From: a virus
DNA: 64,000 bases
Reading direction: 5' to 3' (one strand)
IMG/VR virus record: IMGVR_UViG_3300045988_179014
Location: 96,001-160,000 of that record
Each line of letters begins with the position of its first letter. Position 1 is the stretch's first letter. Of this stretch, positions 889-26,067 are shown one piece after another. The notes under the pieces were generated by a model. That model made no database searches and was not told where the DNA came from. It worked only from the letters and a program-made list of their open reading frames with translations. Both the position numbers and the translations under genes were made by a program.

Positions 889-964
889 GCACCCTCGGTG
901 GGACTCGAACCCACATCAATCCAATTATGCGCTGCCCGCTTAGAAGGCGGTGCCAGTACGAGGG
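889..964 (-). tRNA. tRNA-Arg-like, anticodon loop cuUCUaa; fold atypical
   Basis: Acceptor gccctcg/cgagggt and T-arm GTGGGTTCGAGTCCCAC are clear. The Arg-UCU anticodon arm follows the acceptor after only about 7 nt. A 20-nt D-loop-like segment (cagcgcataattggattgat) lies between the anticodon arm and the T-arm. Confidence 0.5.
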
Positions 965-987
965 CATGTTTTCATATGTTGGCGACT
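964..987. repeat. 24-nt element catgttttcatatgttggcgacttg, inverted copy at 1627-1650
   Basis: Both copies encode MFSYVGDL in opposite orientation and both abut a tRNA gene end. Confidence 0.5.
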
Positions 988-1138
988 TGTCGGGTCTCTC
1001 ACCCGAAGCTCTGGAGTACAAGTCCAGTGTGTTCTTCCCAGAATAGATGACACAAACCACTTTTTCTGGTAGTTCTAGTCCTTGAGGAAGAATTTTGTGC
1101 TTCTTCCTCATTCTGCTAGACCTTACACCATCGCGTCG

Positions 1139-1212
1139 TCGGGAAGACAGGATTTGAACCTGCGACTTCTGGTACCCAAAACCAGCGCTCTACCAAACTG
1201 AGCTACATCCCG
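1139..1212 (-). tRNA. tRNA-Pro, anticodon UGG
   Basis: D-arm tagctcagtttggtagagc, anticodon stem ctggt/accag with loop uuUGGgu, T-arm GCAGGTTCAAATCCTGT. Confidence 0.8.
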
Positions 1213-1255
1213 GTATTTAAGAATATTTTATTGTAAATTATCAGACTAAATTCAG

Positions 1256-1328
1256 CACGACAGGAGGGATTCGAACCCCCATCTAACACTTTTGGAGAGT
1301 GTCGCTCTACCAATTGAGCTACTGTCGT
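1256..1328 (-). tRNA. tRNA-Trp, anticodon CCA
   Basis: Acceptor acgacag/ctgtcgt, anticodon stem acact/agtgt with loop cuCCAaa, T-arm GGGGGTTCGAATCCCTCC. Confidence 0.85.
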
Positions 1329-1370
1329 ATGGATAAATGGCATCCTAATGTTAAAGTGCACACGAAGATA

Positions 1371-1649
1371 CTAGGTACTCTTTAACATCCATTTTTCATC
1401 CAGAATAGATGCTGCATTCTGGATATCTGTAATGGATAACACACCTTCAACATATGAGAAACTACTATTGTTATCACATATGCAAAAATCATAAATTGTT
1501 CCATCTTCAGCTAAGCCATAACAAAGATGAAACATGTCATCTATCTCAAAAGTAATGGATGCAATACGTCCATTACGATATGCGTCATGAAATTCAATGG
1601 ATGTTGGAGTTTTTCCTCGGCTTATCAAATCACCAACATATGAAAACAT
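1371..1649 (-). CDS. hypothetical 92-aa protein embedded in the tRNA array
   Basis: ORF 1371..1715 trimmed to the internal Met (MFSYVGDL...). The longer ORF start overlaps tRNA-Ala. Confidence 0.4.
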   Translation of the reverse strand: MFSYVGDLISRGKTPTSIEFHDAYRNGRIASITFEIDDMFHLCYGLAEDGTIYDFCICDNNSSFSYVEGVLSITDIQNAASILDEKWMLKST

Positions 1650-1671
1650 GACATCACATCCTTCAATCACT

Positions 1672-1746
1672 TGGTGGAAGCTAGGGGATTCGAACCCCTG
1701 ACCCTCTGCTTGCAAAACAGATGCTCTACCACTGAGCTAAGCCCCC
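1672..1746 (-). tRNA. tRNA-Ala, anticodon UGC, CCA encoded
   Basis: gggggcttagctcagtggtagagc, anticodon loop uuUGCaa, T-arm AGGGGTTCGAATCCCCT, 3' CCA. Confidence 0.85.
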
Positions 1747-1780
1747 AATAATAAATATGATTGAAAATTATATACATGCG

Positions 1781-1853
1781 TTGGGACATTGGGATTTGAA
1801 CCCAAGACCTCATCTGTATCAGAGATGCGCTCTAACCACTGAGCTATGCCCCA
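1781..1853 (-). tRNA. tRNA-Ile, anticodon GAU
   Basis: tggggcatagctcagtggttagagc, anticodon stem catct/agatg with loop cuGAUac, T-arm TTGGGTTCAAATCCCAA. Confidence 0.85.
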
Positions 1854-1882
1854 TTAATGTCTCTCATCAAGAGAGACAATTG

Positions 1883-1953
1883 CTGCCCCACCTGGATTCG
1901 AACCAAGATTAACTGAGTCAGAGTCAGTTGTGCTGCCATTACACTATAGGGCA
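1883..1953 (-). tRNA. tRNA-Gln, anticodon CUG
   Basis: Acceptor tgcccta/tggggca, anticodon stem actga/tcagt with loop cuCUGac, T-loop TTCGAAT. Confidence 0.8.
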
Positions 1954-1982
1954 AGGAGAGTATTATTGATTACTTTGTATTA

Positions 1983-2045
1983 GGCCCAGTGGTGCTGTTG
2001 TTGTGGGCTGGTATTTTTTTGAGGTTACCACTGGGCCAACAACAT
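1983..2045. other. structured element (ggcccagtgg ... ccactgggcc with nested gttgttgt/acaacaac) between tRNA-Gln and tRNA-Val
   Basis: 10-bp perfect inverted repeat enclosing a second complementary pair and a T7 run; no ORF. Confidence 0.35.
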
Positions 2046-2099
2046 GGTTGGTATAACATAGGTTTTTTCTTATGAAATCACTATACCATAACTACCATG

Positions 2100-2176
2100 T
2101 GGTGGACACAGAGATAATCGAAATCCCGACCTCCTGGGTGTAAACCAGGCGCTCTAACCAACTGAGCTATGCGTCC
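2100..2176 (-). tRNA. tRNA-Val, anticodon UAC, CCA encoded
   Basis: ggacgcatagctcagttggttagagc, anticodon stem cctgg/ccagg with loop uuUACac, T-arm GGGATTTCGATTATCTC, 3' ACCA. Confidence 0.85.
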
Positions 2177-2200
2177 ATTGTGAAACTAAGCAACATTGTG

Positions 2201-2273
2201 TGCTCTGAACGGGATTTGAACCCGTGTTGCTGCCTTGAGAGAGCGGCGTCCTAGGCCACTAGACGACCAGAGC
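2201..2273 (-). tRNA. tRNA-Glu, anticodon CUC
   Basis: Resembles bacterial tRNA-Glu (tcgtctagtggcctaggac ... GGGTTCAAATCCCG). Anticodon loop cuCUCaa; one mismatch in the anticodon stem. Confidence 0.75.
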
Positions 2274-2294
2274 ATAAAATGTTGGTTTTTATTT

Positions 2295-2368
2295 TGGAAC
2301 GGGTAAGGATTCGAACCTTACATATACCGGTAAAAGGCCGGCCGATTTGCCATTAATCTACCATTCCA
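2295..2368 (-). tRNA. tRNA, probable Lys (UUU); noncanonical anticodon loop ccUUUua
   Basis: Acceptor ggaatgg/ccgttcc, anticodon stem gccgg/ccggt, T-arm TAAGGTTCGAATCCTTA. Loop position 33 is C; assignment is by eye. Confidence 0.55.
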
Positions 2369-2547
2369 TGGGCAATTTCTTACCCATTTTCTCATCCCCA
2401 TCCAAGACTCTAACTTGGATGCCCTTCCGGTGCATTATCTTTATGCTAATGGGGCAACCATAGGTTCATTCCATATTGTAGGACAAACTATTCGAATTCA
2501 TCTATCCTGACAAAAATGAATTGTTCCCGTAGGTTGGATTATATCCG

Positions 2548-2620
2548 CTCCTCCACCTGGACTCGAACCAGGAACCGTTCGGTTAACAGCCGAATGCTCT
2601 GCCAATTGAGCTACAGAGGA
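2548..2620 (-). tRNA. tRNA-Asn, anticodon GUU (copy 1)
   Basis: tcctctgtagctcaattggcagagc, anticodon stem ttcgg/ccgaa with loop cuGUUaa, T-arm CCTGGTTCGAGTCCAGG. Confidence 0.85.
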
Positions 2621-2661
2621 ATATAGTATTACATTACAATAATACTTCAACATTTAGTTGG

Positions 2662-2736
2662 TACGCCCTGTGGGACTCGAACCCACGACCTACGGATTAA
2701 AAGTCCGCAGCTCTAAACCAACTGAGCTAAGGGCGC
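2662..2736 (-). tRNA. tRNA-Lys, anticodon UUU
   Basis: gcgcccttagctcagttggtttagagc, anticodon stem gcgga/tccgt with loop cuUUUaa, T-arm GTGGGTTCGAGTCCCAC. Confidence 0.85.
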
Positions 2737-2808
2737 ATGATAACTTCCCAATTTTTCCTTTGGATACTCGAAAACGCTCCATAATGGAAAAATTATCTCT
2801 GGGATGCG

Positions 2809-2891
2809 TGGATAGGGAGGGATTCGAACCCCCAGCGTTTCTTATGTCACGGTTTTACAGACCGCTTACTTCACCATTTGTATACCTATCC
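2809..2891 (-). tRNA. tRNA-Tyr, anticodon GUA, long variable arm
   Basis: Acceptor ggatagg/cctatcc, anticodon stem gcggt/accgt with loop cuGUAaa, about 15-nt variable arm, T-arm GGGGGTTCGAATCCCTC. Confidence 0.8.
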
Positions 2892-2926
2892 AGGTAATGT
2901 TTGTTTATATTCAATTGTTTTCTCAG

Positions 2927-3013
2927 CGGAGACGACAGGATTCGAACCTGCGGAGGGTGTAACCCCTCGACAGTTTAGCAAACTGTTGCTTTAGGCCTCT
3001 CAGCCACATCTCC
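2927..3013 (-). tRNA. tRNA-Ser, anticodon GCU, long variable arm
   Basis: ggagatgtggctgagaggc, anticodon stem acagt/actgt with loop uuGCUaa, 19-nt variable arm cgaggggttacaccctccg, T-arm CAGGTTCGAATCCTG. Confidence 0.8.
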
Positions 3014-3046
3014 AAGTATAACATATGCATGCTATTGATGCAAAAG

Positions 3047-3117
3047 AGGTGCCTATGGGATTCGAACCCATGTACACGGTTTTGCAGACCGCTGCCTCGC
3101 CACTCAGCCAAGGCACC
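3047..3117 (-). tRNA. tRNA-Cys, anticodon GCA
   Basis: Acceptor ggtgcct/aggcacc, anticodon stem gcggt/accgt with loop cuGCAaa, T-arm ATGGGTTCGAATCCCAT. Confidence 0.85.
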
Positions 3118-3118
3118 G

Positions 3119-3194
3119 CACTCCGGGTGAGAGTCGAACTCACATGTGTCCATTAACCTTTCTACTGGTTCGTAGCCAGAGGGTATACCGGAGT
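3119..3194 (-). tRNA. tRNA-Arg-like, anticodon loop cuACGaa; fold atypical
   Basis: Acceptor actccgg/ccggagt and T-arm GTGAGTTCGACTCTCAC are clear. The Arg-ACG anticodon loop matches the bacterial CTACGAA loop. As in 889-964, the anticodon arm follows the acceptor after about 8 nt, and a 21-nt D-loop-like segment precedes the T-arm. The gene abuts tRNA-Cys. Confidence 0.5.
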
Positions 3195-3260
3195 AATACA
3201 ATCCAAATATTAGGATGATTCATAGATTCTACATTTGTTGGTAACAGTAGAATCTATTTT

Positions 3261-3336
3261 GGGGTGACTGACCGGATTCGAACCGGCGAAATCCTGAGTC
3301 ACAGTCAGGCGTGTTAACCTCTCCACCACAGTCACC
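3261..3336 (-). tRNA. tRNA-His, anticodon GUG
   Basis: Acceptor ggtgact/agtcacc, anticodon stem cctga/tcagg with loop cuGUGac, T-arm GCCGGTTCGAATCCGGT, discriminator C. Confidence 0.85.
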
Positions 3337-3342
3337 ATTCTG

Positions 3343-3415
<73 letters not shown>

Positions 3416-4185: not shown

Positions 4186-4878
4186 TCATTGCTGGTCACG
4201 CTTTTCGTCACGAGCCGTAGCAATTTCATTAACAATGACGGACACCCAAATTGCCTCCATGGATGATACTGAAGGATTCTCCTGTTTTCTCTCCAATGTC
4301 AGCTCTGCCCCAAAAGAGAAGAGTTCTTTGTTAAAAGTCCATACATCATTGTTTGATGCGTCTTTGATACTACCACTGAGTGTCAATGCAAAATCTTGTC
4401 GTAACGTCCCTTTGGTGCGTCCTTGAGCATCTTTGATGCTGAACGTGTAAAGCCATGAGAAAATCTGCTCATCAATATAACCAGACAAATGGTTGTACTC
4501 ATCATAAACTTTTGCTCGATGGTTGATGATACGAAACTCTTCCCCCTCACGCCCCATCAAATTCCCAGATGCGGTGTACATGCTATAAGTGTCGCCAATG
4601 AGATGGATTGCTTCACCACGGATTATAGCTATTGTCTTCCCATCAACCACTACATCCCAATGGTCCCCAAATGAGAAAACCGCCTTTTTGAGGATAATAC
4701 GGTCAGCTTGGGACAAGACATCTAAAGCTGACTGCGAATCAACAGAGTCTCCCGTACTTATCTGTTTCTCAGGCCCACTGTTGAATGCAGATAACCCTAG
4801 GATAGTTGCTACAAATGCAATACTAAACATGAGGTAAATTGGCCGTTTGAAAGTCGTACTTATGATTTTAATATACAA
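4186..4878 (-). CDS. membrane-anchored hypothetical protein, paralog A (N-terminal TM helix)
   Basis: 230-aa ORF with TM segment FSIAFVATILGL. Shares blocks (SQ..DR..LKK, KEL(F/Y)S...(A/I)IW(V/S)) with the ORF at 5129..5848. Confidence 0.6.
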   Translation of the reverse strand: MYIKIISTTFKRPIYLMFSIAFVATILGLSAFNSGPEKQISTGDSVDSQSALDVLSQADRIILKKAVFSFGDHWDVVVDGKTIAIIRGEAIHLIGDTYSMYTASGNLMGREGEEFRIINHRAKVYDEYNHLSGYIDEQIFSWLYTFSIKDAQGRTKGTLRQDFALTLSGSIKDASNNDVWTFNKELFSFGAELTLERKQENPSVSSMEAIWVSVIVNEIATARDEKRDQQ

Positions 4879-5128: not shown

Positions 5129-5848
5129 CTAGCGTCTTTCTGTAGTAGTCTTATATGGTCTATTTCTTTCTGCCATAAAGATTACTGACCAGATGGCGTT
5201 AATGCTAGATATGGAATCAGAATTTTGTTTCTCTATCTTTATCGTTCCGTTGTCAGAATATAGCTCTTTATCAATTTTCCACAAGTCCTTTCCGTCAGTG
5301 CTTTTAATACTGACAACAAGAGCGGAGCTAAACTCCAATGGCAGATTGCTGAGAATGTTGGAGTCTGCGTCCCTCAACTCATATCCATATGCTTGATAGA
5401 GTGGATACGGTTTGTCGTTGGACTTTTCTGCTATCCCCGCGACCCGATTATCGTATTGGTCATAAATCCAAGTTTCTTCAGGTGCTCTACCATTGGTTGC
5501 AAGATAACGAGGTTCCTGATGGCCAATTGGATTACCAGATGGAGTATATATTATATTTACACGGTTTTCTCCATGTTGGGAGGAAGGATGTATTGTAGCG
5601 ATTACTTCATCATCCACAATAATCTTCCAATGTGATGAATTTGTCCGTTTCAGTAGTATATTGTTAGCAGAGGAAATTCTATCAACCACTGTCTGTGAAT
5701 CAGTATAATCATTACTGATTATTGAAACATGCGAATATGGTATTGATGGCACTATTCTCCAAGACCATACTGATAACGCTATAGTGCCTATTAGCGCGCC
5801 GAGAACAAATATTACTACACTTTTATCCAAAAGACGATAATCTTCCAT
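5129..5848 (-). CDS. membrane-anchored hypothetical protein, paralog B
   Basis: 239-aa ORF with TM segment VVIFVLGALIGTIALSVWSW; paralogous to 4186..4878. Confidence 0.6.
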   Translation of the reverse strand: MEDYRLLDKSVVIFVLGALIGTIALSVWSWRIVPSIPYSHVSIISNDYTDSQTVVDRISSANNILLKRTNSSHWKIIVDDEVIATIHPSSQHGENRVNIIYTPSGNPIGHQEPRYLATNGRAPEETWIYDQYDNRVAGIAEKSNDKPYPLYQAYGYELRDADSNILSNLPLEFSSALVVSIKSTDGKDLWKIDKELYSDNGTIKIEKQNSDSISSINAIWSVIFMAERNRPYKTTTERR

Positions 5849-5990
5849 GGTTATAAGTATACATCATCGTAACCGTAAGGTCAATTCGTACCAATCAGAA
5901 CAAACGGTCGATTCAAGTAATGTTCAGGCACCCATTACGTTTTTCCAAGGTTCCATACACGTGAAAGATAATTCAACTAGACTAATTCAG
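5846..5990. repeat. copy A of a ~145-nt repeat (~80% identical to 6256..6400), holding a decayed endonuclease 3' end
   Basis: By-eye alignment of the two segments. Copy A translates to ...VYGTLEKRNGCLNIT*, against ...VWDSGKTRWVLNIT* in copy B (the real end of ORF 6324..6953). Confidence 0.6.
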
Positions 5991-6098
5991 TTTTAAACAA
6001 TTTGAAGTAACTGTATGCAATGTTTTGTTTACACACAGTTACTTCAAACTAGGAAATCTTGGTGGCAAGAGACTTGTGTGGATACGATATTTTAGAAA

Positions 6099-6260: not shown

Positions 6261-6400
6261 GGTTATAGGATACATCATCGTAACGGGAAAGTCAAATCAT
6301 ACCAGTTAGAATAAACGTTCGATTTAAGTAATGTTCAATACCCATCGTGTTTTTCCAGAGTCCCATACACGCGGAAGACGATTCAACCGAGCCAATTCAC
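6256..6400. repeat. copy B of the ~145-nt repeat (endonuclease gene 3' end plus the upstream region and start codon of the next gene)
   Basis: See copy A. Both copies end at the CAT (ATG on minus) start codon of a membrane-protein gene. Confidence 0.6.
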
Positions 6401-8464
6401 TCTCAGACAAGGAATCATTCCACAGCAAGTTTGCATCTTCACGAAACTGTTCTCTTCTGAATCGAAACTTGTGCACCCGGCGACCTTGCGCCACATAAGA
6501 ATAATCAGAGCTGAGTTCTTTATCTGTCACAAAACCCAATGATTTATACATGCTACCATTGCTGACATCATGAGCAGAGAAAGTGACGATTTGGTTGATT
6601 CCTTCAATTACGCACCATTTTCTGACGTATTCAAGCATCTTCCCCAATCCGCCCATCACAATACAAGACGTGGCATATCGGTCCAACACCAAACTCTGAT
6701 TCCTGCGACTCCAAACGGAAACCGCCACTAAACCATCCTGTTCAGTTTTCAACCCCAAATACAATGAGCCAGTGGTAGTTCCCTGAATATGATAAACATT
6801 CAAAAAATCAGATACATCAGTATATTGCAAAACTACAACTTTAGTTTTTCTCGCAGCTATCCTTTTGCTCTCATTCAGTCCCAGTTTGTGTTGTATCATA
6901 GATTTGATGATAGAAGAACGATAACACCAATCATCCTCCCAAACCTGCAACAATTGAATGCCTTTTCTTTACACAATCGCCATTTCATCGAATGATAGTT
7001 TTTGTCTTTACCATTGGTGTCAGAATGCCAATGCAAACCATTGTATTCAATAGCAAAATTCTTTGATGGTATATAAACATCCAGTTCATACGGTGGAATA
7101 ACAGCACGAGTATTGCTAACAACAGAATCCTCATCACCCAACAATTGTTTCACAAACTCTTGAAGTTCTTTCTCAGCTCTGGACGTGAATGAACCAGCCA
7201 CACAATCAGGACATTGACTATTGTAAAAATTACGTGCATTGACTCTTGCACACCACACATGGCCTTTACTGCATTTCCACCAGATTTTGTGATTGGAACC
7301 AGCAGTTACTTCCTCAGGGGTCAAGGAATTGAGTTGGTTGTCCCATTCCTGCGCTAAATGAGGATTAATAGTCGCCAAATCATTGAAACCAGGAACAACA
7401 ACACGATTATTACAAACAGGACACAACTGCATTGATGAGTGAACAGCTTTTTTAATAGATTGTGTCCATTGGTGACCAAGTGAACATTTCCAGTGAACTA
7501 TTTCCCGTGAATTGGGATACACAGCATAGGGATTCAATGGCTGATTAAGTTCCATATCCCAAAAACTCATCAATTCAGGACAACAAACACCCAAGCTCTT
7601 CTCTCTTGGTGCTATCGTGGATTTTTGTACAACACAATATGGGCATTTGGTTCTTTTATTGACACGTTGTTTAACAGTAGCCACCCATAAATGCCCCTCA
7701 GAACATTTCCAATGAACACGAATTTGCTGTGACGGTTTAATCATGGATGGATTGATGTCAGTATTGAGAGCATAATCCCATTCATTCAACAGCTCTGGAT
7801 ACAAAGTCGCAAAATCATTCACACCCACCACTAATTTATGATTACTGCATACCGGACATTTAGTATTTCGTTTAGTACGTTGCGAAACCGGTGCCATCCA
7901 TGTGTGTCCATTCTTGCACCACCAGTAAACCTTGACGCTGGAATTAGCAGTCACATCATTAGGCGATAAGGAATGATTCTGTTCATAATCCCACTCAGAT
8001 GCAATCACTGGATGAGTAATGTTCAAAGTATTGACATTTTGTTCTGGAAGCTTACCTTGACATATTGGGCATGAGCCGCTTTTAATCCGGTGTTTCACTC
8101 CCATGACATATTCATGACCTGATGAACAAATCCAATGGAAACGTTTTGAGTTGGTTCTAGCAACTTGTCCAAAAGGGATTCCATTCATGTTCTCATCCCA
8201 TTCTGACAACAAATGAGGGTATCGAACATCCAATCTTTCTGATGGTGGTCCCAATCTTGCGCACAATGGACAACTACTGCCATTGACTCGGTTACGGACA
8301 GAAGCCATCCACTTGTGTTGACAATGATGACAAACCCAACCCACTTTTTCAATCGTCCCAGCTGAATAATCGGATGGAGTGTGCTTGTTGATAGTCGTGT
8401 CCCATTCCATCAACAACTGAGGAGCCACATCCGTGAGTGAACGTTTGGGTTGAGGTTTACGCAT
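6324..8464 (-). pseudogene. frameshifted paralog of the modular endonuclease family (zinc-ribbon repeats + DUF559-like + conserved C-terminal domain)
   Basis: ORFs 6896..8464 and 6324..6953 lie in different frames and overlap. Together they reproduce the full architecture of 21891..23792 (..YELDVYIPS..AIEYNGLHWH.. then ..QLLQVWEDDW..VWDSGKTRW). The frame break is at the A/T run near 6960-6968. Confidence 0.6.
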
Positions 8465-8466
8465 AT

Positions 8467-11439
8467 CTAACTCAAACGATTGGGTGGAGTGGTTTTGGCC
8501 GCAGCTGCACGAAAAATGTTCTCCAAAACATTAGCATCCTCCACTGTGGAACCAGTCATGGAACGCATATTGGCTGTCTTGTTGGTGTATGCATCAATAA
8601 TGTTTTCATCCACAGTACCTTCCAAATAGGGAAAATAGGCATTGGCATTTTGACCGTCTCGATGTGCCCGACCCAATGCTTGCTCAGTATCCAAATTGTT
8701 CTGTCGGATATCATGAATTATGCTGACACGTGGGTTACTGCTTGCTTTGTTTCCATCTGGTAATGTTTCTCCAGCATGTAAAGAAATACCAGCAACCACT
8801 GTACACAAAACAACATCTGCTTGCCCCGTCTGAAACTTGATACGTTCTGTTTCTCTCATGGAAACATTACGTCCACTGATTTCCGTTACTCGGAGTTTAC
8901 GCGCTTCCAAAAGTTCTTTATATCGGTCTATTGTTTCCATGAATTCACATGAAATGTATACTTGGTTCCCTGAATCCACAAGGTCTGCAATCATGTCAGC
9001 CATGGAATCAACTTTTAACAATGAGGATTTTTGTCTATATCGTAAGGTTTCTACCAGTGCGCCTTTGGGGTCTCGTTTTGCTGGGGTGAGTCTCAACCAG
9101 TTACGGAAACGTGTCCAAGCTTCCTCGTAAATGGGCCGTTGTTGATTGGTTAGTGCGATTGGGAAAGGAATGGTCAACTGTTCTGGCCATCCTGCTATGT
9201 CTTTGGGTGAACGCATAATGAAAGGAGCATCTGGTTTCAGTAATCCGCGACCTATACGTTGAGCGTCTTTTCGTTGGATTTCTTTTGCGTGTTTGATAGC
9301 TATTTCATATTTTCTGCGTTCCACGGGGTCTTTGGAATTCTTGCTGAAACTGGGAACAGAAGCCCACGAATATCCTGTTTTACCTTTGGTCACAGCGAAA
9401 TTATGTTTTTCCAAGAACGGTCCCCAAGTTGCTGGTGTTACCGTTTTTGATGCTGGCATATTTGTCAACAATGGAGCAATGATTCCAGCCATACTAGCAA
9501 AATTCAGTGGGGATGCTCCAGGTGTGGCAGTTGAATAGACCACAAAAGGAGAAACGTCTTTCTGGTAGGGTTTTTCCAATTGAGCAATGTTCACCGCAGC
9601 AACAGACATGGTGGAGCTGGGATAGTTTTTCAAATAATGAGCTTCATCAAAAATAATGAAGTCCCATTGTATTATGGGGGTTCCTTTCTGTGATGTTTGT
9701 CTGTTCTTGGTTCGTTGTTTCTTAGCGGTTTTGGCTGTTTCAGGAGTTTCCAGCAGTTTGTTCAATTGTTGATAGTTGATGACCATTGGACGCATGAGTG
9801 CTGTGGAGACAGGGTAATTGTGAAGTGTTTGTCTCCATTGTGGAATAACACTTTTAGGGCACACTATCAACAGTTTGGCTTTGTGTTTGACCCCGAATCC
9901 GCGCTGTTTTGCCAATGCAGTAATCCCTGAAAGTGTTGACAGTGTATTGTGAGTGGGAATATGCTCTCGCCCGGCCAGATACAAATGATTAGGACTGTCA
10001 ACACTAATGCAATAATAGGGCTCAGTTTTCTCAATTTCCTGCACTGAAACAATGTATCTGAACTGGTATTGTGCATTGGCAGCGAAATTGTTCAAATATT
10101 CATTCAGCAATGAGGCTTTGTCTTCAATACGGAAAACTTGATGAGTGGGACAATAGTGCAAAGATTTTTTTGTGGTGTTTTGATTCCGTGTGATGTTTGG
10201 TTTTGTACAATCCATGACTTGCCAGCCAAAACTACTAATCAGTGTTTTCACGTCAGCTTGCAGAGGGTCTGGTAAATCAAATTGGACTCCATAAGAATCC
10301 ACAGAACCAGCCACATCCATGATTCCTTGTAACAGTTCCAGTCGTTGTTCCCAATGTGATGTGAGATAACTTACAGGAATTGTTTTAGATGGTGCAGAAT
10401 CATACAGTTCATTCAATTCTTGATTCAGTTTTTCAAAACCATAATCATTCAATATGTTCATGCTTGCCACAGAATCCATTGAACCCAACCATGCACCCAA
10501 TATGTATGGATTGATTGGTAGTTCCTGGTGTGTACCTTCCACCATGGATGCGTTGTAAATACAGTGATTGGGTGTTCCAGTTGTAGCGTAGAGAGAATCC
10601 ACAATTTCTCTAGTGGTTTTGACAGAATCTTGATGCTGCTTGTCATGTGGTGCAGTTGCTCGGTCCAATGCTTCTAGAACTTCTTGTGGATGGTATAGAT
10701 GATGTTGGTTTTGCAGATTCAGAGGATTCACTGTTTCCAGCAGTTTTTGAATAAACACTAGGTTTTCACATTCGCTGGAAAGGGAATTGTAGTCTATTGC
10801 ATTGTGTTGATGTTGTGCATCCAACAAGTAGTTTTGTAATGCTTCGTGGTCTGAATGATTCAGTGGTGGGAATCGGTTGTTTATTTTAGGGTGATTTCGT
10901 TCAGCCAAATTACTGGTTAGCCAACGATGGTCTTCGTCAGCATCCAATGTGCTTCCATCCGAGAAAGTTATACAGTAGAATTTGTCGGCTTTTGATTCAT
11001 ATTTGGCTGTTACCATAGTGGGTAGACCATCAGAACTCAGCACGTATTGCCCCACTGCGATGTCTTTCATGGGAACTAAACCTTGTGGAGTTGGTAGTAG
11101 AGTGCTGGATGCAAGACCTTTACCCAAACCGGTTTTGTCCGCTTCCAGGAATCCTCTCCACCCTTGCTGGTAGGCTTTGATGATTTTCTTGGCCGCTTCC
11201 AGTTGATGTTCTCGTGGGGTGAAACTGACTGAACTTTTCTCAGGGGGCATTACCATTTTGTTCAGTTCATCTTCCTGCCAGCGAGCATAGGAAAAATCCT
11301 CACTACGGTATGGTCTCAACTCGGGGGGAAGAATAGTTCCACGGTATACATGAATTTTGTGGTTTTTCCAGTATTGTACATCTGGGTGTTTGAATCCCCA
11401 TGGAAGTTCCAATGTATGAATCATGTACCACTCACGCAA
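8467..11439 (-). CDS. SNF2/DEAD-like helicase interrupted by an intein
   Basis: N-terminal helicase P-loop ..EADKTGLGKG.. and C-terminal helicase motif VI (QALGRAHRDGQ). An intervening ~390 aa carries intein and LAGLIDADG motifs. Confidence 0.8.
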   Translation of the reverse strand: MREWYMIHTLELPWGFKHPDVQYWKNHKIHVYRGTILPPELRPYRSEDFSYARWQEDELNKMVMPPEKSSVSFTPREHQLEAAKKIIKAYQQGWRGFLEADKTGLGKGLASSTLLPTPQGLVPMKDIAVGQYVLSSDGLPTMVTAKYESKADKFYCITFSDGSTLDADEDHRWLTSNLAERNHPKINNRFPPLNHSDHEALQNYLLDAQHQHNAIDYNSLSSECENLVFIQKLLETVNPLNLQNQHHLYHPQEVLEALDRATAPHDKQHQDSVKTTREIVDSLYATTGTPNHCIYNASMVEGTHQELPINPYILGAWLGSMDSVASMNILNDYGFEKLNQELNELYDSAPSKTIPVSYLTSHWEQRLELLQGIMDVAGSVDSYGVQFDLPDPLQADVKTLISSFGWQVMDCTKPNITRNQNTTKKSLHYCPTHQVFRIEDKASLLNEYLNNFAANAQYQFRYIVSVQEIEKTEPYYCISVDSPNHLYLAGREHIPTHNTLSTLSGITALAKQRGFGVKHKAKLLIVCPKSVIPQWRQTLHNYPVSTALMRPMVINYQQLNKLLETPETAKTAKKQRTKNRQTSQKGTPIIQWDFIIFDEAHYLKNYPSSTMSVAAVNIAQLEKPYQKDVSPFVVYSTATPGASPLNFASMAGIIAPLLTNMPASKTVTPATWGPFLEKHNFAVTKGKTGYSWASVPSFSKNSKDPVERRKYEIAIKHAKEIQRKDAQRIGRGLLKPDAPFIMRSPKDIAGWPEQLTIPFPIALTNQQRPIYEEAWTRFRNWLRLTPAKRDPKGALVETLRYRQKSSLLKVDSMADMIADLVDSGNQVYISCEFMETIDRYKELLEARKLRVTEISGRNVSMRETERIKFQTGQADVVLCTVVAGISLHAGETLPDGNKASSNPRVSIIHDIRQNNLDTEQALGRAHRDGQNANAYFPYLEGTVDENIIDAYTNKTANMRSMTGSTVEDANVLENIFRAAAAKTTPPNRLS
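9946..11110 (-). mobile_element. intein with a LAGLIDADG homing endonuclease domain inside the SNF2 helicase (boundaries approximate)
   Basis: C-terminal intein block ..NHLYLAGREHIPTHN followed by Thr; LAGLIDADG-like motifs PYILGAWLGSMDS and LLQGIMDVAGSVDS; inserted next to the helicase GLGK P-loop. Confidence 0.6.
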
Positions 11440-11583
11440 TCACAGGAGTAACATTTATTGGACTAGGCGCAGGTAATGGTTCAGGCGTTATCATATTCGG
11501 TTTCGACGTATTCATCCACGTGTAAATACCAAACAAGACCAGAACAATCAGAACAGCAATCAAAACCAATAGTCCCCGTTTGT

Positions 11584-11922
11584 TCATGATGCCTCCAGTA
11601 CAGTAATTGTCTCGTTTGGAAAAAACCAGCGTGTATGATTTAGTTTCTCATCTGACAGTGAATACAGCAAATTGTCAATGATGCAAATAGCTTCTTGCTG
11701 CTTGTTCAGATTCACGATGTTATTACGATGCAGATGTAGAGAAAATTGGTTGAGTGTCCGATTAAGTTGCTTCAGTTTACCAGCTTTAATCGCTTCACGT
11801 ATTCTGTCCAATAGAGCTTGACGCATTTCTCCACCTGACAACCCCATTTCTACTGCTTCGCCAAGGTTGTGAGACTGAGGGGGAGCGCTAAGAAGGTCGA
11901 ATTCCATGACTTCTCTCCTCAA
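11584..11922 (-). CDS. hypothetical protein
   Basis: 112-aa ORF in the gene-dense minus-strand run. Confidence 0.4.
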   Translation of the reverse strand: MRREVMEFDLLSAPPQSHNLGEAVEMGLSGGEMRQALLDRIREAIKAGKLKQLNRTLNQFSLHLHRNNIVNLNKQQEAICIIDNLLYSLSDEKLNHTRWFFPNETITVLEAS

Positions 11923-12190
11923 AAACGGTCCATACTACCTTAAAAATATCTGCACCCATTTTACCGAAAGAGGAAAATCTCAATTTTACCCACCAAAATA
12001 ATGCTCAATCCACCAAAAATCAGAAACGAACCAATATGTATTATTTATAGTGTTAATAACATGAGATTGAAGAACCATAATAGGAACTAAATTGATAAAA
12101 ACTATTGAATCATGTAGTCAGTAGTTCTAGCATTCAATACTTATCTCGTATTGTTGGTATTTTGGTTGTGTAAATTAGTCGGGTTTCATA

Positions 12191-13102
12191 TCAATTATTG
12201 AGAATGTAATCCTGGAATGCTGGGCTATCATTGAGGTTCACTTTATCAGGATTGACGCTAGTATTGTTCAAGTATGCAATAGGTGGATAATACCCAGTTT
12301 TGAGGTGTGTATCATCCCCAACGGCCAAAATCCAACTGGCAAATGTTCCATTGCTGATAGATTTCTCATCCACATCCTGTACGTTTACACTCTGTGCTGT
12401 TTCAACCACTGCTTTAATAACTTCATCGGATTTTGTAGTGTTCAAAGTAGCAGATTTCTTCAACAATGCCAACATCAAATCCCAAGTGGTGTTTGGGGAT
12501 GTAACAACTGATTCTGCCAAAGTTTCAGCAGCATACATTGACATGGCATTACCAGTTGGCACAGGATGTACTCGTAGTTCAATCACCCCATTCTCCACCA
12601 TGCGCTTGAAAGATGTTTGATTCAACAAAACAAAGTCTCGTGATTTGGGTGAATCAAAATCAATGTAAATGTCCAAAATCTTCTTGTTATCAGTTTGTTT
12701 GTCATTGGTGAAAATGAAAACAGCAGAATCTTTGCCATCATTCCCGCGAACAAGAGATTTTTGCTCTGTGTTGGTTGATTCAATGATTTGCCCATGGAAT
12801 GTTTCCAACTTATTATTGGCAACAACCATGTTTCCTTTCCGGTCAGCAACTTGGGACAATTCGTCTGAGTTTTTCATTTGCTGAATCCAAGGAATAGTGA
12901 ATTTAGCCACTCCAATACCCAACAATGGCATGACAACAATCAAAACCGCTAAAACAATGATTACAGTTTTGGGAGTAAAAAACGGTTTGGAAACAGGCGA
13001 GTTTGAATCAGTCGTAATTTCTGTGACGTCAGGTGTATCAATCGTTGACTGGGCGGAATCAACTTTTTCATCAGTTGGTTCAATCAAATCATTCTGATTC
13101 AA
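12191..13102 (-). CDS. membrane-anchored exported protein; possible degenerate DsbA-like fold
   Basis: N-terminal TM segment VIIVLAVLIVVMPLLGIGV. The segment LDIYIDFDSPKSRDF resembles a DsbA h-D-F-x-C-P-x-C block with both Cys replaced by Ser. Speculative. Confidence 0.45.
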   Translation of the reverse strand: MNQNDLIEPTDEKVDSAQSTIDTPDVTEITTDSNSPVSKPFFTPKTVIIVLAVLIVVMPLLGIGVAKFTIPWIQQMKNSDELSQVADRKGNMVVANNKLETFHGQIIESTNTEQKSLVRGNDGKDSAVFIFTNDKQTDNKKILDIYIDFDSPKSRDFVLLNQTSFKRMVENGVIELRVHPVPTGNAMSMYAAETLAESVVTSPNTTWDLMLALLKKSATLNTTKSDEVIKAVVETAQSVNVQDVDEKSISNGTFASWILAVGDDTHLKTGYYPPIAYLNNTSVNPDKVNLNDSPAFQDYILNN

Positions 13103-14339
13103 GGGTTTCCTCCTGTCCCAGTTTCACAAAATTACGGGCTTGTTCAACCACTTGCTCCTTGGTCGTCGTTTCTACGCCCTGCAATGACGGAGCGGTATTC
13201 ACCCATTCATCGTAGCCTTTCACCACATCACTGTTGTCAAACCCTTGAAGATGTTCAGGTAATTCCCTGTTTTGCTGTTTTGAGGATAAAGGTTGCAATG
13301 TGGCATGTTTCACACTCCAAGACATTGCATGTTTCGTATTTTTGTCAATAGTTCCCCAATCCAGAGCTTGATACTTTGCTGGAGAAATATTGATGATGGT
13401 TTGACGCAGAATTGGGGCTATACGAGCATCAAATGAGGTACCATTCACTTGTGTTTCTTGCAAATTGTTAAGAATTCGCTCAGTAATGTCTGATGCATTC
13501 AAATTTTTGGCATCAATAGTAGCAAAATCATATTGTGGACGTTGTGCTATAGTACGAACATCAGCTGTGAAAACCCCTGATTCATCTATCATCCACAATG
13601 TCCATCCACGACCTAGTTTTGCTTTCTTGTCACTGAAACCGCGTCGAATGGTAGAACCATTATAATAGATTTTGCTTTTTGCTGTATCTGTCATCCCATC
13701 AGTTGAACCCACCCAGCCTCTTTCGTGAATATGACCAAACAGGGAATAGCTCCAATTGTGGTCATCCAAAAGTGTGGGGGGTATCACAATTTCTCGGGGA
13801 GATTGCTCTGCATGCAGGGTTTCATGAAGATACTTGTCAAATATGCTACCATGTGTGGACAAAATGTTGATTTCCCCATCAACCGGTTTCACCAGCTTCA
13901 TGGTATCGGCTTGTTCCCCATACATGTGATGAGAGACCATGTGTAAATGAATGCCATCAGCGATTTCATGGGTTACATAAGGTTCAGCATGTGAAAACAC
14001 CTTACGCCACGGGTCATGCAGCACTCTGGATGCGGCAATATCAGCTCGGATGTCATTGGTGTCATGATTCCCCGCTAACAAATAAGCTGGAATCCCTGCA
14101 CTCCATAAACGCCTCAACTGGTTTTGAACGAATATGATGGTTCGGATATCTGGGGAAGGTTGATGAAAAGTGTCTCCAGCCCAAACAGTGGCATCAACAC
14201 CTTCTTCAATGATTTCAGTGATGATACGCGACAAAGCAAGGTATCCATCAGCTTCACGCAAATTGATTCCTTGTGTATTCACTAAACTGGTAGCTTTGTA
14301 TCCAGCATGGGGGTCACTGATATGCGCCAATTTGAACAT
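13089..14339 (-). CDS. Mre11/SbcD-family metallophosphoesterase nuclease
   Basis: Motifs ISDPH, GDTFH, LLAGNHD, HMVSHH, GHIHERG. No adjacent SbcC/Rad50-like gene is seen. Confidence 0.7.
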   Translation of the reverse strand: MFKLAHISDPHAGYKATSLVNTQGINLREADGYLALSRIITEIIEEGVDATVWAGDTFHQPSPDIRTIIFVQNQLRRLWSAGIPAYLLAGNHDTNDIRADIAASRVLHDPWRKVFSHAEPYVTHEIADGIHLHMVSHHMYGEQADTMKLVKPVDGEINILSTHGSIFDKYLHETLHAEQSPREIVIPPTLLDDHNWSYSLFGHIHERGWVGSTDGMTDTAKSKIYYNGSTIRRGFSDKKAKLGRGWTLWMIDESGVFTADVRTIAQRPQYDFATIDAKNLNASDITERILNNLQETQVNGTSFDARIAPILRQTIINISPAKYQALDWGTIDKNTKHAMSWSVKHATLQPLSSKQQNRELPEHLQGFDNSDVVKGYDEWVNTAPSLQGVETTTKEQVVEQARNFVKLGQEETLESE

Positions 14340-21890: not shown

Positions 21891-23792
21891 TCATGAATCC
21901 AGCATCTTCACCCAACGAGTCTTACCCGAATCCCAAACTTTGCTCAAACCGTTCAATTCCACCAATTCGGATTCGGTCAAACCATCTTGCCACAATAATT
22001 CCGGGTCTTTCATGAAACGTTGTTTACGAAACACAAACTTGTGGTATCTACAATTCTTCCAAACATACTTGTAATCTGGTGGCAATTCTCTGTCCAGTGT
22101 GAATCCATTGGAAACATACACAGTACCATCACTGACTTCATGGTCTGAGAAAGAAACAATCCGATGAACACCTGATAATTGAACAACAGCATATTTCAGC
22201 AATTTACTGAAACCACCAGGAACAGACACGGAAGTGGCGAAACGTTCCAATACAGCAGTCTCATTTTGCAGAGAAAATGACATAACCGCCACCAACGAAT
22301 TGGTCTCATCCACTAAACCAAAAGACCTGGTAAAATCCTTGAAACCCTGAATATGGTACGAATTCAAAAATTCACGAACCACATTCTTGTCAGGAATCAC
22401 ACCAACCGTTTTACGCGCCATGACACGACTGACACTCAACCCTAATTTGTGTCGTATCATAGATTTGACGATAGAAGAACGATAACACCAATCATCCTCC
22501 CAAATCTGCAATAATTGGACCTGTTTGTCATGACACTGTTTCCACTTGTTGTAATGATACTGACGAGGATTGGGACGTCCAGCTTCACGCATCACATTTT
22601 CTTGATGCCAATACACGCCATTCACTTCAATGGCCAAATGCTTGGATGGTATATAAACATCCAGCTCATATGGCGCAATAAGTGAACGGTCATGTCGCAC
22701 CACGGATTCAGACCCCACTAAACCTTCCACGAACTTTGCAATCTCCAACTCGCTCACTGATGCATTGGACCTGCATTGTCGACAACCACTGTAGCGACGT
22801 GAATAAACTGCCGCTTTCCAAGAATGTCCTTTTTGGCAACGCCACCAGACTTTTCGAGATGATTGAACTGTAACCATTTCTGGTCCATTACCATTCAAAA
22901 CCTCATCCCACTCACATGCAAGGTCAGGAGAAACTGTTTTCAAATCATTGAATCCCACCAAAACCCTAGTGTTTGAATTTGAACAATAAGGACAACCTGT
23001 GGATTGACGATGAGCCACTGATGCTTCCCAAGAATGTCCTCGGAAACACTGCCACCAATATTTGTTAGCTGTTCCATAAAGAACTTCGGATGGCGTCACC
23101 AACCCATTCTTTGATGGATGCCATTCCTGTGTCAGCTGCGGATTGACAGTAGCCAAATCGTTGAACCCGAACCATACTTTCCGATTAGCGCAATACGGAC
23201 ACCCTTGTCGTCTTTGACTTCGTTTAATTATGGATGCTTCCCACTCATGGTTGTTCACACACTTCCACCACACCTTTTTGGAACTGGTGTACAAAACCTC
23301 ACATAGTGATTCAAGATTTTTCACATTCCATTCCGGAACCAACTCTGGATTACAACTGGCCAAATCGTTGAAACCAGATAGAACCTTCCTGTTGGCACAA
23401 TAAGGACAACCTTGATTCCGTGTTGTACGATACTTGACTTTGGCTTCCCAAATATGACCCAAAACACATCGCCATGTGAATACTTGTGAACTGGTAGCAA
23501 GAATAGAACTTGTATCAGGTGTGTTCACGTCCATGATTAATTCTGCTGCTATTTGTGGGAACTGTGACTTCAAATCATTGAACCCAGCAAGCACTTTCCG
23601 ATTCGCACAATAAGGGCAACCACTGTGTCGATTGGATTTGTTGTTGACAGATGATTCATAAGAATGCCCTAATGAACACAACCAATACGCTTTGATGGAG
23701 GAACCTTGTGGAAGATGGTCAGGATTCAAATGAGAATTACGTTTCCAGCCCCATTCACTCATAAGTAACGGAGAATCTGATACATTCCGCAT
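21891..23792 (-). CDS. modular nuclease, probable homing endonuclease: ~9 zinc-ribbon repeats (DUF4379-like) + DUF559/Vsr-like PD-(D/E)xK + conserved C-terminal domain
   Basis: Repeats of W.C..GH.W.A.V..R.....GCPYC.N..V..GFNDL; then YELDVYIPSKHLAIEVNGVYWH; then the QIWEDDW...HIQG...VWDSGKTRW domain shared with the two paralogs. Confidence 0.65.
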   Translation of the reverse strand: MRNVSDSPLLMSEWGWKRNSHLNPDHLPQGSSIKAYWLCSLGHSYESSVNNKSNRHSGCPYCANRKVLAGFNDLKSQFPQIAAELIMDVNTPDTSSILATSSQVFTWRCVLGHIWEAKVKYRTTRNQGCPYCANRKVLSGFNDLASCNPELVPEWNVKNLESLCEVLYTSSKKVWWKCVNNHEWEASIIKRSQRRQGCPYCANRKVWFGFNDLATVNPQLTQEWHPSKNGLVTPSEVLYGTANKYWWQCFRGHSWEASVAHRQSTGCPYCSNSNTRVLVGFNDLKTVSPDLACEWDEVLNGNGPEMVTVQSSRKVWWRCQKGHSWKAAVYSRRYSGCRQCRSNASVSELEIAKFVEGLVGSESVVRHDRSLIAPYELDVYIPSKHLAIEVNGVYWHQENVMREAGRPNPRQYHYNKWKQCHDKQVQLLQIWEDDWCYRSSIVKSMIRHKLGLSVSRVMARKTVGVIPDKNVVREFLNSYHIQGFKDFTRSFGLVDETNSLVAVMSFSLQNETAVLERFATSVSVPGGFSKLLKYAVVQLSGVHRIVSFSDHEVSDGTVYVSNGFTLDRELPPDYKYVWKNCRYHKFVFRKQRFMKDPELLWQDGLTESELVELNGLSKVWDSGKTRWVKMLDS

Positions 23793-23892: not shown

Positions 23893-26067
23893 TTACAGTT
23901 GACATGATTCACAGTATTCAGCAGCAGTTCCCTCGATTTGAGTACCTGCTAAAGCTCGTTGTTTGATACGAGTGTAATAAAGGGTTTTGCATCCAGCTCT
24001 CCACGCTTTGATGTAGGCGCGATTCAGGTCTCTTGTGGTGGCTGTGTCAGGGAAAAACAGTGTTAGGGACAATCCTTGGTCCACATGTTGGGTAGCAGCT
24101 GCATATACGGCAATAATCGCGTCTGGGCCTATCTTGTATGCATCTCTATAGTATGGAATGGTGTCATCACTGAGATAAGGCGCAGGATAATACACGCGAC
24201 CAAGTTTGCCTTCTTTTCTAATCTCGACAGGTGCGGAAACAGGGTGGATTGAACTGGTGCTGTTATTGATGTATGAGATGCTTCCAGTTGGCGGTACTGC
24301 TTGCAAATTCTGGTGGTATAGTCCATGTGTTTTCACGTCTTCCGCCAACTGTATCCAATCCTGTGGTTTTGGAATATAAATACTGGACCGATGGAACAGG
24401 TTACGTACCTTTTCTGTCTCAGGTTGTGACCAATCCTTGTCAATGTATTTCTGGAAGAACTCACCAGAAGCGTATTTCGAGTCCTCAAACCCATCAAAAG
24501 TTTCACCACGTTCTTTAGCAATTTTGTTGGATGCTCGTAATGCTTGATACAGAACTGCGTAAAAGTAAATATTGGTGAAATCCACTGCTTCAGGGGAGTC
24601 GTAATGAATGTGTTCTCTGGCTAGGAATCCGTGAAGATTCATTTGTCCCAACCCAATGGCATGTGAACGCTTATTCCCGGATTCAATTGAAGGCACTGAT
24701 GCAATATTGGACAAATCTGACACTGAGGTCAATGCACGTACAGCTGTTTCCACTGTTCTGGCAAAATTGGGGGAATCGAAAGACAACGCAATATTCATGG
24801 AACCGAGATTACATGAGATGTCTTTTCCAACATGTTTGTAATTCATGTTTTCATGATATGTGGACGCTTCAGAGACCTGTAGAATCTCTGAACACAAATT
24901 GGACATGTTGATGCGCCCTTTAATCGGATTTGTACGATTGGCGGTATCTTCAAACAATATGTATGGGTAACCAGATTCAAATTGGATTTCTGCAATGGTT
25001 TGGAAGAACTGGCGTGCTTTTACTTTGCTTTTTCGGATTCTGTTGTCATTTACCATCTCATGATACTTTTCAGTAATGGAAATGTCTGACAGAGGGATTC
25101 CGTATACTCGTTCCACATCATATGGAGAAAACAGATACATGTCATCATTGTTTTTAGCGAGTTCGAAAGTAATGTCTGGAATCACTACGCCCAAAGAGAG
25201 GGTTTTGATACGAATTTTTTCGTCGGCATTTTCGCGTTTGGTGTCAAGGAAACGCATGATGTCTGGATGATGAGCGTTGAGATATACTGCTCCTGCTCCT
25301 TGACGTGCACCCAACTGATTGGCGTAAGAGAATGCATCCTCCAAAAGTTTCATCACAGGTATGACTCCACTGGACTGATTCTCGATTTGTTTGATAGGTG
25401 CTCCCTGTTCACGCAGGTTTGTCAAGTTGAGAGCCACACCACCACCGCGTTTCGATAATTGCAGGGATGAGCTGATACCACGTGCGATGGATTCCATGTT
25501 GTCCTCAAGCCGCATCAGGAAACAGCTAACCAGTTCCCCTCGTTGTGCACGTCCAGCATTGAGAAAAGTTGGTGTTGCAGGTTGGAAACGTCCAGTCATT
25601 ATTTCATCCAGGATTGTTTCAGCCAGTTTTTCGTCACCATGAGCCAAGTAGAGTGATACCATGGTCACACGGTCCTCAAAACGCTCCAAGTAACGTTTTC
25701 CGTTGAAGGTTTTCAGGGTGTATGCTGAATAATATTTGAAAGCGCCAAGGAAACTCTGGAAGCGGAATTTGAACGCATACGCTCTCTTGTACAGGGACTT
25801 CACAAAATCAAAAGCGTATTGTTCTATCACATCTTCTTCATAGTATCCATTGTCAACCAAATACTCCAGTTTTTCTTCCAAATCGTGAAAATACACTGTG
25901 TTCTGGTTGACATGCTGGAGAAAGAATTGACGGGCGGCTTGACGGTCAGCATCCACTTGTAGACGACCATCACTCCCAACCAAGTTAAGTTTGGCGTTCA
26001 ATGCATGATAGTCCATTTCGGGGGTGCTGGTTTCGTCATAGTCAATGGCATTATTGGGTGCTGACAT
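23893..26067 (-). CDS. nrdE: class I ribonucleotide reductase large subunit (NrdE-like, no ATP cone)
   Basis: Active-site SNLCSEI; C-terminal Cys pair ..YCESCQL; overall R1 length. Confidence 0.85.

Follow-up and report, generated by a model that had tools for sequence, protein, structure and literature searches.

The genes considered here lie in a 64,000-nucleotide stretch of viral DNA (positions 96,001 to 160,000 of IMG/VR record IMGVR_UViG_3300045988_179014; this whole stretch is referred to below as the window), and several described systems come close to them. Hef of phage U5 was, as relayed in a citing paper, defined as a homing endonuclease (Sandegren et al. 2005) and is reported to cleave nrdB (PMC2988022); members of PHROG 559 occur inside group I introns of terminase genes, and Hef-type proteins have been placed in the Vsr-like 'EDxHD' family (Taylor et al. 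2011). I-Bth0305I (PDB 3R3P; Taylor et al. 2011) is an intron-encoded endonuclease in which a DNA-binding region with NUMOD and helix-turn-helix (HTH) motifs precedes the nuclease domain, and the protein ends there. Mom of phage Mu (PF25680; PDB 8BV8) is a stand-alone protein of 231-241 amino acids (aa) without a nuclease, which moves glycine from Gly-tRNA(Gly) to adenine N6 in double-stranded DNA (PMC13219725; 2026). Mutagenesis has shown Mom residues H58, R111, S124, D149 and Y159 to be important; R111 is Mom-specific and substrate-facing rather than general among GNATs, R151 is essential, and an HTH-like insertion (residues 175-209) is needed for activity. Mom-REase (restriction endonuclease) fusions have been described in jumbo phages, where they were read as modification plus restriction, with 'five momylating enzymes' counted in PA5oct (Iyer et al. 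2021; PMC7824862). We found that the window carries three genes, named copies A, B and C, each very probably a mobile homing endonuclease gene of the Hef type that includes a Mom-like GNAT domain.

The three genes are minus-strand paralogues with a common core (A, 21891..23792; B, 6324..8464; C, 54371..56056), as an initial annotation of the window had recognized, and they are laid out as follows:

21891..23792, minus strand: copy A, an intact open reading frame (ORF) of 633 aa, very probably a Hef-like homing endonuclease gene
22773..23792, minus strand: copy A, array of five DUF4379 treble-clef zinc fingers, residues 1-340 (Pfam and regular expression)
22446..22772, minus strand: copy A, Vsr-like 'EDxHD' nuclease domain, residues 341-449 (profile match and conserved residues)
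21894..22445, minus strand: copy A, predicted Mom-like GNAT domain, residues 450-633 (AlphaFold2, Foldseek and hhalign)
6896..8464, minus strand: copy B, 5′ ORF of 522 aa, covering six DUF4379 zinc fingers and the greater part of the nuclease
6324..6953, minus strand: copy B, 3′ ORF of 209 aa with the last nuclease strand and helix, then the GNAT domain
54371..56056, minus strand: copy C, 561 aa, with an HTH-repeat N-terminus, the nuclease and a GNAT domain that has an internal 27-aa deletion

When copy A was searched against the whole window with tblastn, only copy B (E 7e-128), copy C (E 7e-64) and a 24-aa fossil were found, and judged by these alignments the similarity among the three copies is true homology, far above chance. 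All of the shared motifs quoted earlier are present (YELD, AIEvNGxxWH, IWEDDW, YHIQG, SVSVPGGFSKLLK and VWDSGKxRWV), and the N-termini differ as had been noted, with DUF4379 fingers in copies A and B and an HTH-like region in copy C, in which Pfam found no DUF4379 finger. The number of fingers had been overestimated: PF14311 matches five units in copy A (230.7 bits, E 1.3e-69) and six in copy B (292.8 bits, E 5e-89; cut-off 24.5 bits), and a regular expression for W.C..H.W...C..C units agreed with five and six, rather than the 'about nine' zinc ribbons first counted. The zinc-finger array of copy A is presumed to be its target-recognition module. Copy B had been taken as a single gene covering 6324..8464, but in the window a 1-nt deletion divides it into the two ORFs given above, and the 5′ ORF runs out of frame at its end, ahead of the WEDDW strand.

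Full-length profile matches place the three copies among phage Hef proteins. Over their whole length, including the tail, all of them match PHROG 559 ('HNH endonuclease') and PHROG 3339 ('homing endonuclease'); for copy A the E values are 1.2e-95 and 1.2e-88, respectively, with both matches reaching the C-terminus, for copy C the match has an E value of 2.3e-70, and the two halves of copy B match at 1.2e-44 and 1.1e-52 (the 3′ half to PHROG 3339). Searching isolated phages with tblastn gave matches in 472 records, the best of them over the full length being Campylobacter phage 'Hef-like homing endonucleases' (26-28% identity over 93-99% of the protein), which match at 10-12 places per genome. 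Like the Hef proteins of phage U5, of Dickeya phage LIMEstone1 (F-Lim III, VII, VIII and X) and of the Campylobacter phages, the window copies match the family profiles with the C-terminal domain included, stand free among conserved genes of the phage, in many cases next to ribonucleotide reductase genes, are present in several copies per genome and have a variable N-terminal DNA-binding part. They differ from the Hef proteins of isolated phages in sequence, with only 26-30% identity in the best full-length matches, and their link to the founding U5 Hef runs through annotated T4-like 'Hef-like' genes, such as the one of Yersinia phage JC221. The closest metagenomic proteins are 42-49% identical to copy A.

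The C-terminal domain belongs to the family as a constant part. Searched alone, it was found in 412 phage records, including T4-like, ViI-like, PA5oct-like and Lak phages, most of them labelled Hef-like or homing endonuclease, and two Acinetobacter phage records carry the label 'putative nuclease/acetyltransferase protein'. A profile of the domain matched 20,792 cluster representatives at E <= 1e-3 among 1.84 billion, and the best of these are mostly 450-700 aa long with the domain at the extreme C-terminus. Some longer representatives (P0043-P0047, 830-1064 aa) have two Mom-like domains each and apparently consist of two Hef units in one ORF. Two Pseudomonas phages of 286-287 kb, presumably relatives of PA5oct, have five places that match the C-terminal domain and are annotated as Hef-like homing endonuclease. 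The Mom-REase fusions of Iyer et al. 2021 are apparently the same proteins as the Hef-like family, although they were read there as modification plus restriction and not as homing elements. The domain and its fusion to a nuclease are therefore already described and not new, contrary to the earlier suggestion of a new and unknown module; it is a constant part of the Hef family with a predicted GNAT/Mom fold, and the fusion is in print (PMC7824862). Our literature search found no paper that contains both 'Hef-like' and 'acetyltransferase'.

The nuclease domain is related to that of I-Bth0305I. Profile A3, which spans the nuclease and the C-terminal region, matched the catalytic domain of I-Bth0305I (PDB 3r3p) with an E value of 8.4e-8 over profile positions 15-94, and the AIEVNGVYW block is almost identical between the two; with the copy A sequence alone, the PDB search returned zinc-finger proteins and a marginal match to 3r3p (E 0.22). 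Pfam models matching the homologues include REase_MTES_1575 (PF18741) in 20 of 41, as well as DUF559 and Vsr. All three copies have equivalents of I-Bth0305I D196, E206, N208 and H213. Conservation across the family was counted in 159 domains, taken from 150 diverse representatives (<=50% mutual identity): it is 94% for the equivalents of D196, E206 and H213, and at the position of N208, N391 in copy A, the residue is Asn in 95, Asp in 36 and Cys in 17. I-Bth0305I D222 aligns with a conserved His (H413), and the equivalent of E170 could not be placed with confidence. In copy A numbering, E376, D378, E389, H396, H413, K416, E432 and D433 are 91-95% conserved. The window copies resemble I-Bth0305I in having an N-terminal DNA-binding region ahead of the nuclease, and they differ from it in being free-standing and in continuing into a GNAT domain.

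An AlphaFold2 (AF2) model of the nuclease and GNAT domains together had a predicted local distance difference test score (pLDDT) of 96 and a predicted template modelling score (pTM) of 0.90, and its top 50 Foldseek matches were all GNAT or Mom structures. In this model the nuclease is formed by a helix, three strands, two helices, a strand and a helix, and IWEDDW and the helix that follows come directly after the remaining nuclease elements. Judged by this order of secondary structure, read against the Vsr fold, IWEDDW and the next helix seem to close the nuclease as its final strand and helix rather than belong to the C-terminal domain, to which the motif had been assigned; the frameshift of copy B would therefore truncate the nuclease itself.

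A Pfam search of the three window proteins gave no match in the C-terminal region at E <= 0.1, and a PDB sequence search returned nothing that matched this domain. Among the homologues, PF25680 ('Mom protein family') matches 13 of 41 at E <= 0.01 and GNAT acetyltransferase models match 4 of 41; the sole score seen over the curated PF25680 threshold of 27.1 bits was that of homologue P0024 (31.1 bits). The AF2 model of the C-terminal domain alone had a pLDDT of 95.7, and Foldseek against PDB ranked phage Mu Mom (8bv8) first, with an E value of 1.2e-7, followed by ordinary GNATs, in the same order as for the two-domain model. Membership of the predicted fold in the GNAT superfamily is secure. 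With hhalign, the domain aligned to Mu Mom (E 4.9e-4, probability 32%), pairing Mom H58 with H480 of copy A, R111 with R517, S124 with S529, D149 with D550 and Y159 with Y559. Sequence profiles, the Foldseek ranking and residue conservation together relate the C-terminal domain to phage Mu Mom.

The predicted pocket of copy A is lined by R460, H480, Q482, R517, S529, K530, D550, Y559, Y574, Y576, R582 and H584. H480, R517, D550 and Y559 are each 97% conserved across the family, and the range for H480, Q482, R517, K530, D550, Y559, Y574, Y576, R582 and H584 is 88-97%. The position of Mom S124 is Ser in only about half of the domains, Ser or Thr in 57% and Gly in 38% (60 of 157), and that of R151, residue 552 in copy A, is Arg in 115 of 157 (73%). 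Copies A and C retain equivalents of all five Mom residues, H58, R111, S124, D149 and Y159, and the domain shares with Mom the GNAT fold and the HKF motif. In the Hef domain the aromatic strand is joined directly to the HKF strand and helices follow HKF; the HTH-like insertion of Mom may lie elsewhere in the domain or be replaced by the helical segment after the HKF strand. The GG(F/A)(S/G)K loop of the Hef domain is closer to the coenzyme A-binding GNAT motif than the loop of Mom is, suggesting that the donor may differ from that of Mom.

Each copy lies directly 3′ of a gene on the same strand, with gaps from the upstream stop codon of 100 nt (copy A), 2 nt (copy B) and 313 nt (copy C), in agreement with the placement first described:

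23893..26067, minus strand: nrdE, class Ib ribonucleotide reductase large subunit, upstream of copy A
8467..11439, minus strand: SNF2-family helicase gene with an intein, upstream of copy B (Pfam)
56370..57413, minus strand: gene for a 347-aa protein, upstream of copy C, with a GGGTGGGKS motif 22 aa from the C-terminus

The region of nrdE is likely to contain the putative homing target of copy A. In relatives recovered from IMG/VR and metagenome scans, the gene order around nrdE is conserved throughout (904-aa helicase-like gene, 203-aa gene, nrdE, 160-aa gene, signal peptidase, 318-aa gene and Dda/PIF1-type helicase, by PHROG and Pfam), and it is the junction after nrdE that varies. Two relatives with 99% nrdE identity (L002 and L056) have the same gene as copy A at this junction. 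One with 78% identity (L003) has two different Hef genes in tandem, of 568 and 645 aa, which are 41-42% identical to copy A and both intact (10313..12019 and 12056..13993). L004 and L005 (74%) are without a Hef gene and have a 420-bp gap, and L036-L038 (78% over the best segment) are likewise without one and have an nrdE interrupted by about 620 bp. Presence, replacement and absence at the nrdE junction form the pattern that would be expected of a free-standing homing endonuclease gene, a reading that these sequence comparisons support. Along with the end-to-end PHROG matches and the match to I-Bth0305I, this variation bears out the initial proposal of free-standing homing endonucleases. The metagenome scan gave one further near-identical genome with the copy A gene, and more distant loci without an adjacent nrdE. 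The interruption of nrdE in L036-L038 lies at 9167..9786, and the two matching parts of nrdE overlap at query residues 354-392; Rfam, at its gathering threshold, found no group I intron in L036, the one of the three that was scanned.

A second record, IMGVR_UViG_3300045988_187329, has flanking proteins 96-100% identical to those of the window and carries all three genes at the same sites, with copy B intact as one 713-aa ORF and copy C intact at 590 aa. Copy A is the only intact copy in the window, where the other two have lesions and a remnant of a fourth gene is found:

6963..6966, minus strand: copy B frameshift by a 1-nt deletion, with A4 in the window and A5 in the relative
54489..54502, minus strand: copy C, junction of an 81-bp in-frame deletion between two 10-bp copies of TTCGGTTTGA (DNA alignment with relative L054)
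5929..6000, minus strand: what is left of a fourth Hef-like gene, a fossil of its 3′ end, downstream of copy B by about 330 nt

The copy B frameshift lies in a homopolymer and is possibly a sequencing error. Programmed -1 frameshifting at this A-run was considered and rejected, as the relative has the extra A and an uninterrupted ORF, and a deletion or sequencing error is simpler. Nucleotide identity to a near-identical phage (L040) is about 99.5% at 4500-6600 and about 95-96% at 6600-11100, a boundary inside the 3′ part of copy B that may be a recombination boundary at the nuclease gene; mosaic identity to L040 is also seen elsewhere. In copy C, the deletion takes out 27 residues that form the PDYxY...RxHKF hairpin, which is 88-97% conserved across the family, so the C-terminal domain first described as shared is indeed common to all three copies, but it is incomplete in copy C. 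The fossil reads TELV*LNYLSRVWNLGKT*WV, with two in-frame stops, and matches by tblastn with 62.5% identity over 24 aa (E 0.013); its position beside copy B suggests an earlier tandem pair, as in L003. A 20-pair hairpin, TTTGAAGTAACTGTGTGTAA...TTACAGTTACTTCAAA, with a T-rich tail abuts the fossil (6001..6048, minus strand) and is a possible terminator; terminator-like sites in the region are no more numerous than shuffled expectation.

Between the window and IMGVR_UViG_3300045988_187329, the ratio of non-synonymous to synonymous divergence (dN/dS) was 0.195 for copy A, 0.20 for copy B and 0.15 for copy C, and 0.15, 0.27 and 0.09 for the respective GNAT domains. For the flanking genes it was 0.05 (nrdE), 0.02 (160-aa gene), 0.11 (SNF2), 0.155 (signal peptidase) and 0.147 (430-aa gene), and dS values in the flanks resembled those of the endonuclease genes. 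Together with the genome, the endonuclease genes have diverged under purifying selection that is relaxed but real and acts on all three domains, and the lesions in copies B and C are recent.

By analogy with U5 Hef, I-Bth0305I and the intron-encoded members of PHROG 559, we infer a homing cycle in which the DNA-binding array would dock on the DNA of a co-infecting phage without the endonuclease gene, within or close to the adjacent conserved gene, the Vsr-like nuclease would cut the docked site, and recombinational repair would copy the endonuclease gene, with its flanks, into the genome that was cut. After fixation the gene would decay, a stage that copies B and C and the fossil may represent. 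The GNAT domain would act in this cycle as an acyl- or aminoacyl-transferase on a DNA base, probably at adenine N6 as in Mom; that it is such a working transferase is the weakest step, yet most likely. It might mark those sites to which its own protein binds and thereby protect the resident genome against the attached nuclease, a protective role that we consider somewhat doubtful. Each gene would then be a one-protein element that modifies self and cuts a rival. Type IIG/IIL enzymes such as MmeI, which combine target recognition, nuclease and DNA modification in one polypeptide, are a precedent for this logic of modifying self and cutting non-self in one protein, by analogy only, as these enzymes modify DNA with a methyltransferase in place of a GNAT, do not belong to the homing elements and have no sequence relationship to Hef genes. 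That Hef-type genes are self-immunising selfish genes in this full sense, with the GNAT domain marking the resident site and the nuclease cutting the unmarked site of the rival, is a tentative proposal that is rather unlikely as it stands.

Several observations weigh against the reading of the three copies as mobile homing endonuclease genes with an active Mom-like domain. Empty sites were found only at site A, in relatives with 74-78% nrdE identity, from which neither an exact empty site nor a target sequence can be read. Sites B and C yielded only relatives of the same lineage or without synteny. Syntenic junctions lacking a Hef gene, which the initial annotation had proposed to look for, were thus recovered at site A (L004, L005 and L036-L038) and not at the other two. 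With SNF2 as the query, we obtained the same lineage and relatives with 51% identity, which have no downstream Hef gene but do not keep the downstream synteny either; queries with the two neighbours of copy C (347 aa and 430 aa) gave the same lineage only. The window copies themselves fall short of the PF25680 threshold. Position 552, equivalent to the essential R151 of Mom, holds Glu in two copies (A and C) and Asp in the third (B), and in the clade of the window this Glu may, on the alignment, indicate a different chemistry, donor or adduct, or a weakened activity. Copy B has Gly at the S124 position and Ala at the D149 position, also in the intact copy B of the relative, which suggests that the GNAT pocket is dispensable for the retention of some copies. 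The essential HTH-like insertion of Mom has no clear counterpart at the same position in the Hef domain. To our knowledge, the bulk-DNA modifications reported for Hef-rich phages are not N6-adenine adducts.

The same data can be read with the phage, rather than the gene, as the beneficiary. In such a restriction-modification-like weapon, the Mom-like domain would mark adenines throughout the genome of the phage itself and the nuclease would degrade unmodified host or competitor DNA, as in the reading of jumbo-phage Mom-REase fusions by Iyer et al. 2021 (PMC7824862); the Mom pocket kept across about 20,800 representatives, purifying selection on all domains and the several copies per genome with different DNA-binding arrays are in line with it. 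We consider it improbable, as U5 Hef is reported to be a site-specific homing endonuclease that cleaves nrdB, members of the family are encoded in introns, and at one intergenic site syntenic relatives variously keep the gene, have others in its place or have none. With two of three copies damaged and a fourth reduced to a fossil, a selfish cycle of invasion and decay is a better fit than a defence that is maintained; both readings could hold together. It is also conceivable that the GNAT domain is not an enzyme and instead dimerises the nuclease for cutting of both strands, or grips or flips the target base, with immunity coming from sequence differences at the resident site, as it does for other homing endonucleases of the free-standing type. 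Mom and I-Bth0305I are both dimers, the pTM of the two-domain model suggests a rigid nuclease-GNAT unit, and this possibility would accommodate the Glu at the R151 position in copies A and C, the loss of the S124 and D149 equivalents in copy B and in its intact relative, and the Gly found at the S124 position in 60 of 157 family members. We nevertheless find it unlikely, since ten pocket residues are 88-97% conserved at no more than 50% mutual identity, conservation so high being typical of a ligand or catalytic pocket and not of an interface, and R517 corresponds to the substrate-facing Arg that is specific to Mom and not conserved across GNATs generally.

Two further explanations are effectively excluded. 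That the C-terminal 200 aa are a previously unknown accessory domain of homing endonucleases would agree with the lack of a Pfam match in the window proteins at E <= 0.1 and of a PDB sequence match, but the PHROG profiles already span this region, the 412 phage records include many labelled 'Hef-like homing endonuclease' and some labelled 'nuclease/acetyltransferase', the predicted fold is that of GNAT and Mom, with PF25680 and GNAT Pfam models matching homologues, and the fusion is in the literature (PMC7824862). The initial annotation had named a match to a known housekeeping family as grounds for giving up its view of this domain; a known family was indeed matched, but it is a phage DNA-modification family and not a housekeeping one. 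The profile searches it suggested gave PF14311 matches in copies A and B, the representatives counted above for the C-terminal region alone, and DUF559 matches to the nuclease part, the last among the homologues. Domestication, in which the three would be housekeeping genes such as Vsr-type repair nucleases fixed in the phage replication module, could explain why they are co-oriented and tightly spaced with replication and nucleotide-metabolism genes, why no terminator-like site lies between each gene and its upstream gene, and why dN/dS is below 1. It is hard to reconcile with the absence of the gene at the nrdE site of syntenic relatives, with the lesions in copies B and C and the fossil fourth gene, and with non-synonymous evolution several-fold faster than in the flanks.

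Among the neighbouring genes, the SNF2 helicase upstream of copy B contains an intein of about 389 aa at residues ~110-498, within the GLGK(T) motif I, which apparently starts with Ala (A110) and ends with HN followed by Thr at the +1 position; the SNF2 genes of L041-L053 (51% identity) are without residues 110-498 and are contiguous across the intein point. The 347-aa protein upstream of copy C had been called a P-loop protein, but it has only the GGGTGGGKS motif near its C-terminus and no Pfam or PHROG match, and is a putative ATPase at most. Judged by eye, its N-terminus has hydrophobic stretches resembling membrane helices. We also considered copy C as an insertion that divides a P-loop ATPase gene, in the way that mobE splits nrdA of phage Aeh1, and rejected this, as the flanking proteins have no Pfam or PHROG match and the relative has the same 347-aa gene. 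Two minus-strand genes 3′ of copy B, at 4186..4878 and at 5129..5848, are paralogous to each other, with about 30% identity over 189 aa, and have no family match. At 101..3415 on the minus strand, Rfam at its gathering threshold found an array of 19 tRNA genes, typical of jumbo phages; near the three endonuclease genes it found no intron or other RNA element, this array alone, and promoter and terminator scans around all three genes gave nothing above shuffled expectation.

The exact copy A protein is also encoded on a 337,400-bp ENA contig, and the source of the window is an uncultured jumbo phage; a megablast search of isolated phages with positions 20000-27000 of the window gave no match, which indicates a phage without a close cultured relative.

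For the window itself, these results amount to a sound annotation of three Hef-type genes in an uncultured jumbo phage, and with its intact, frameshifted, internally deleted and fossil copies it offers a snapshot of invasion, fixation and decay. The role of the Mom-like domain in this nuclease family is a question neither specific to the window nor first raised by it. One very large protein family has been known under two names that the literature searched does not connect, 'Hef-like homing endonuclease' and 'Mom-REase fusion' or 'momylating enzyme', and as the chemistry of Mom is now solved, the idea of a site-directed DNA-modifying domain in a homing endonuclease family has become directly testable. 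If the self-immunising proposal is true, these genes would be a GNAT-based, single-protein counterpart of restriction-modification that drives its own spread, and Mom-type hypermodification would be used site-specifically by more than 20,000 protein clusters.

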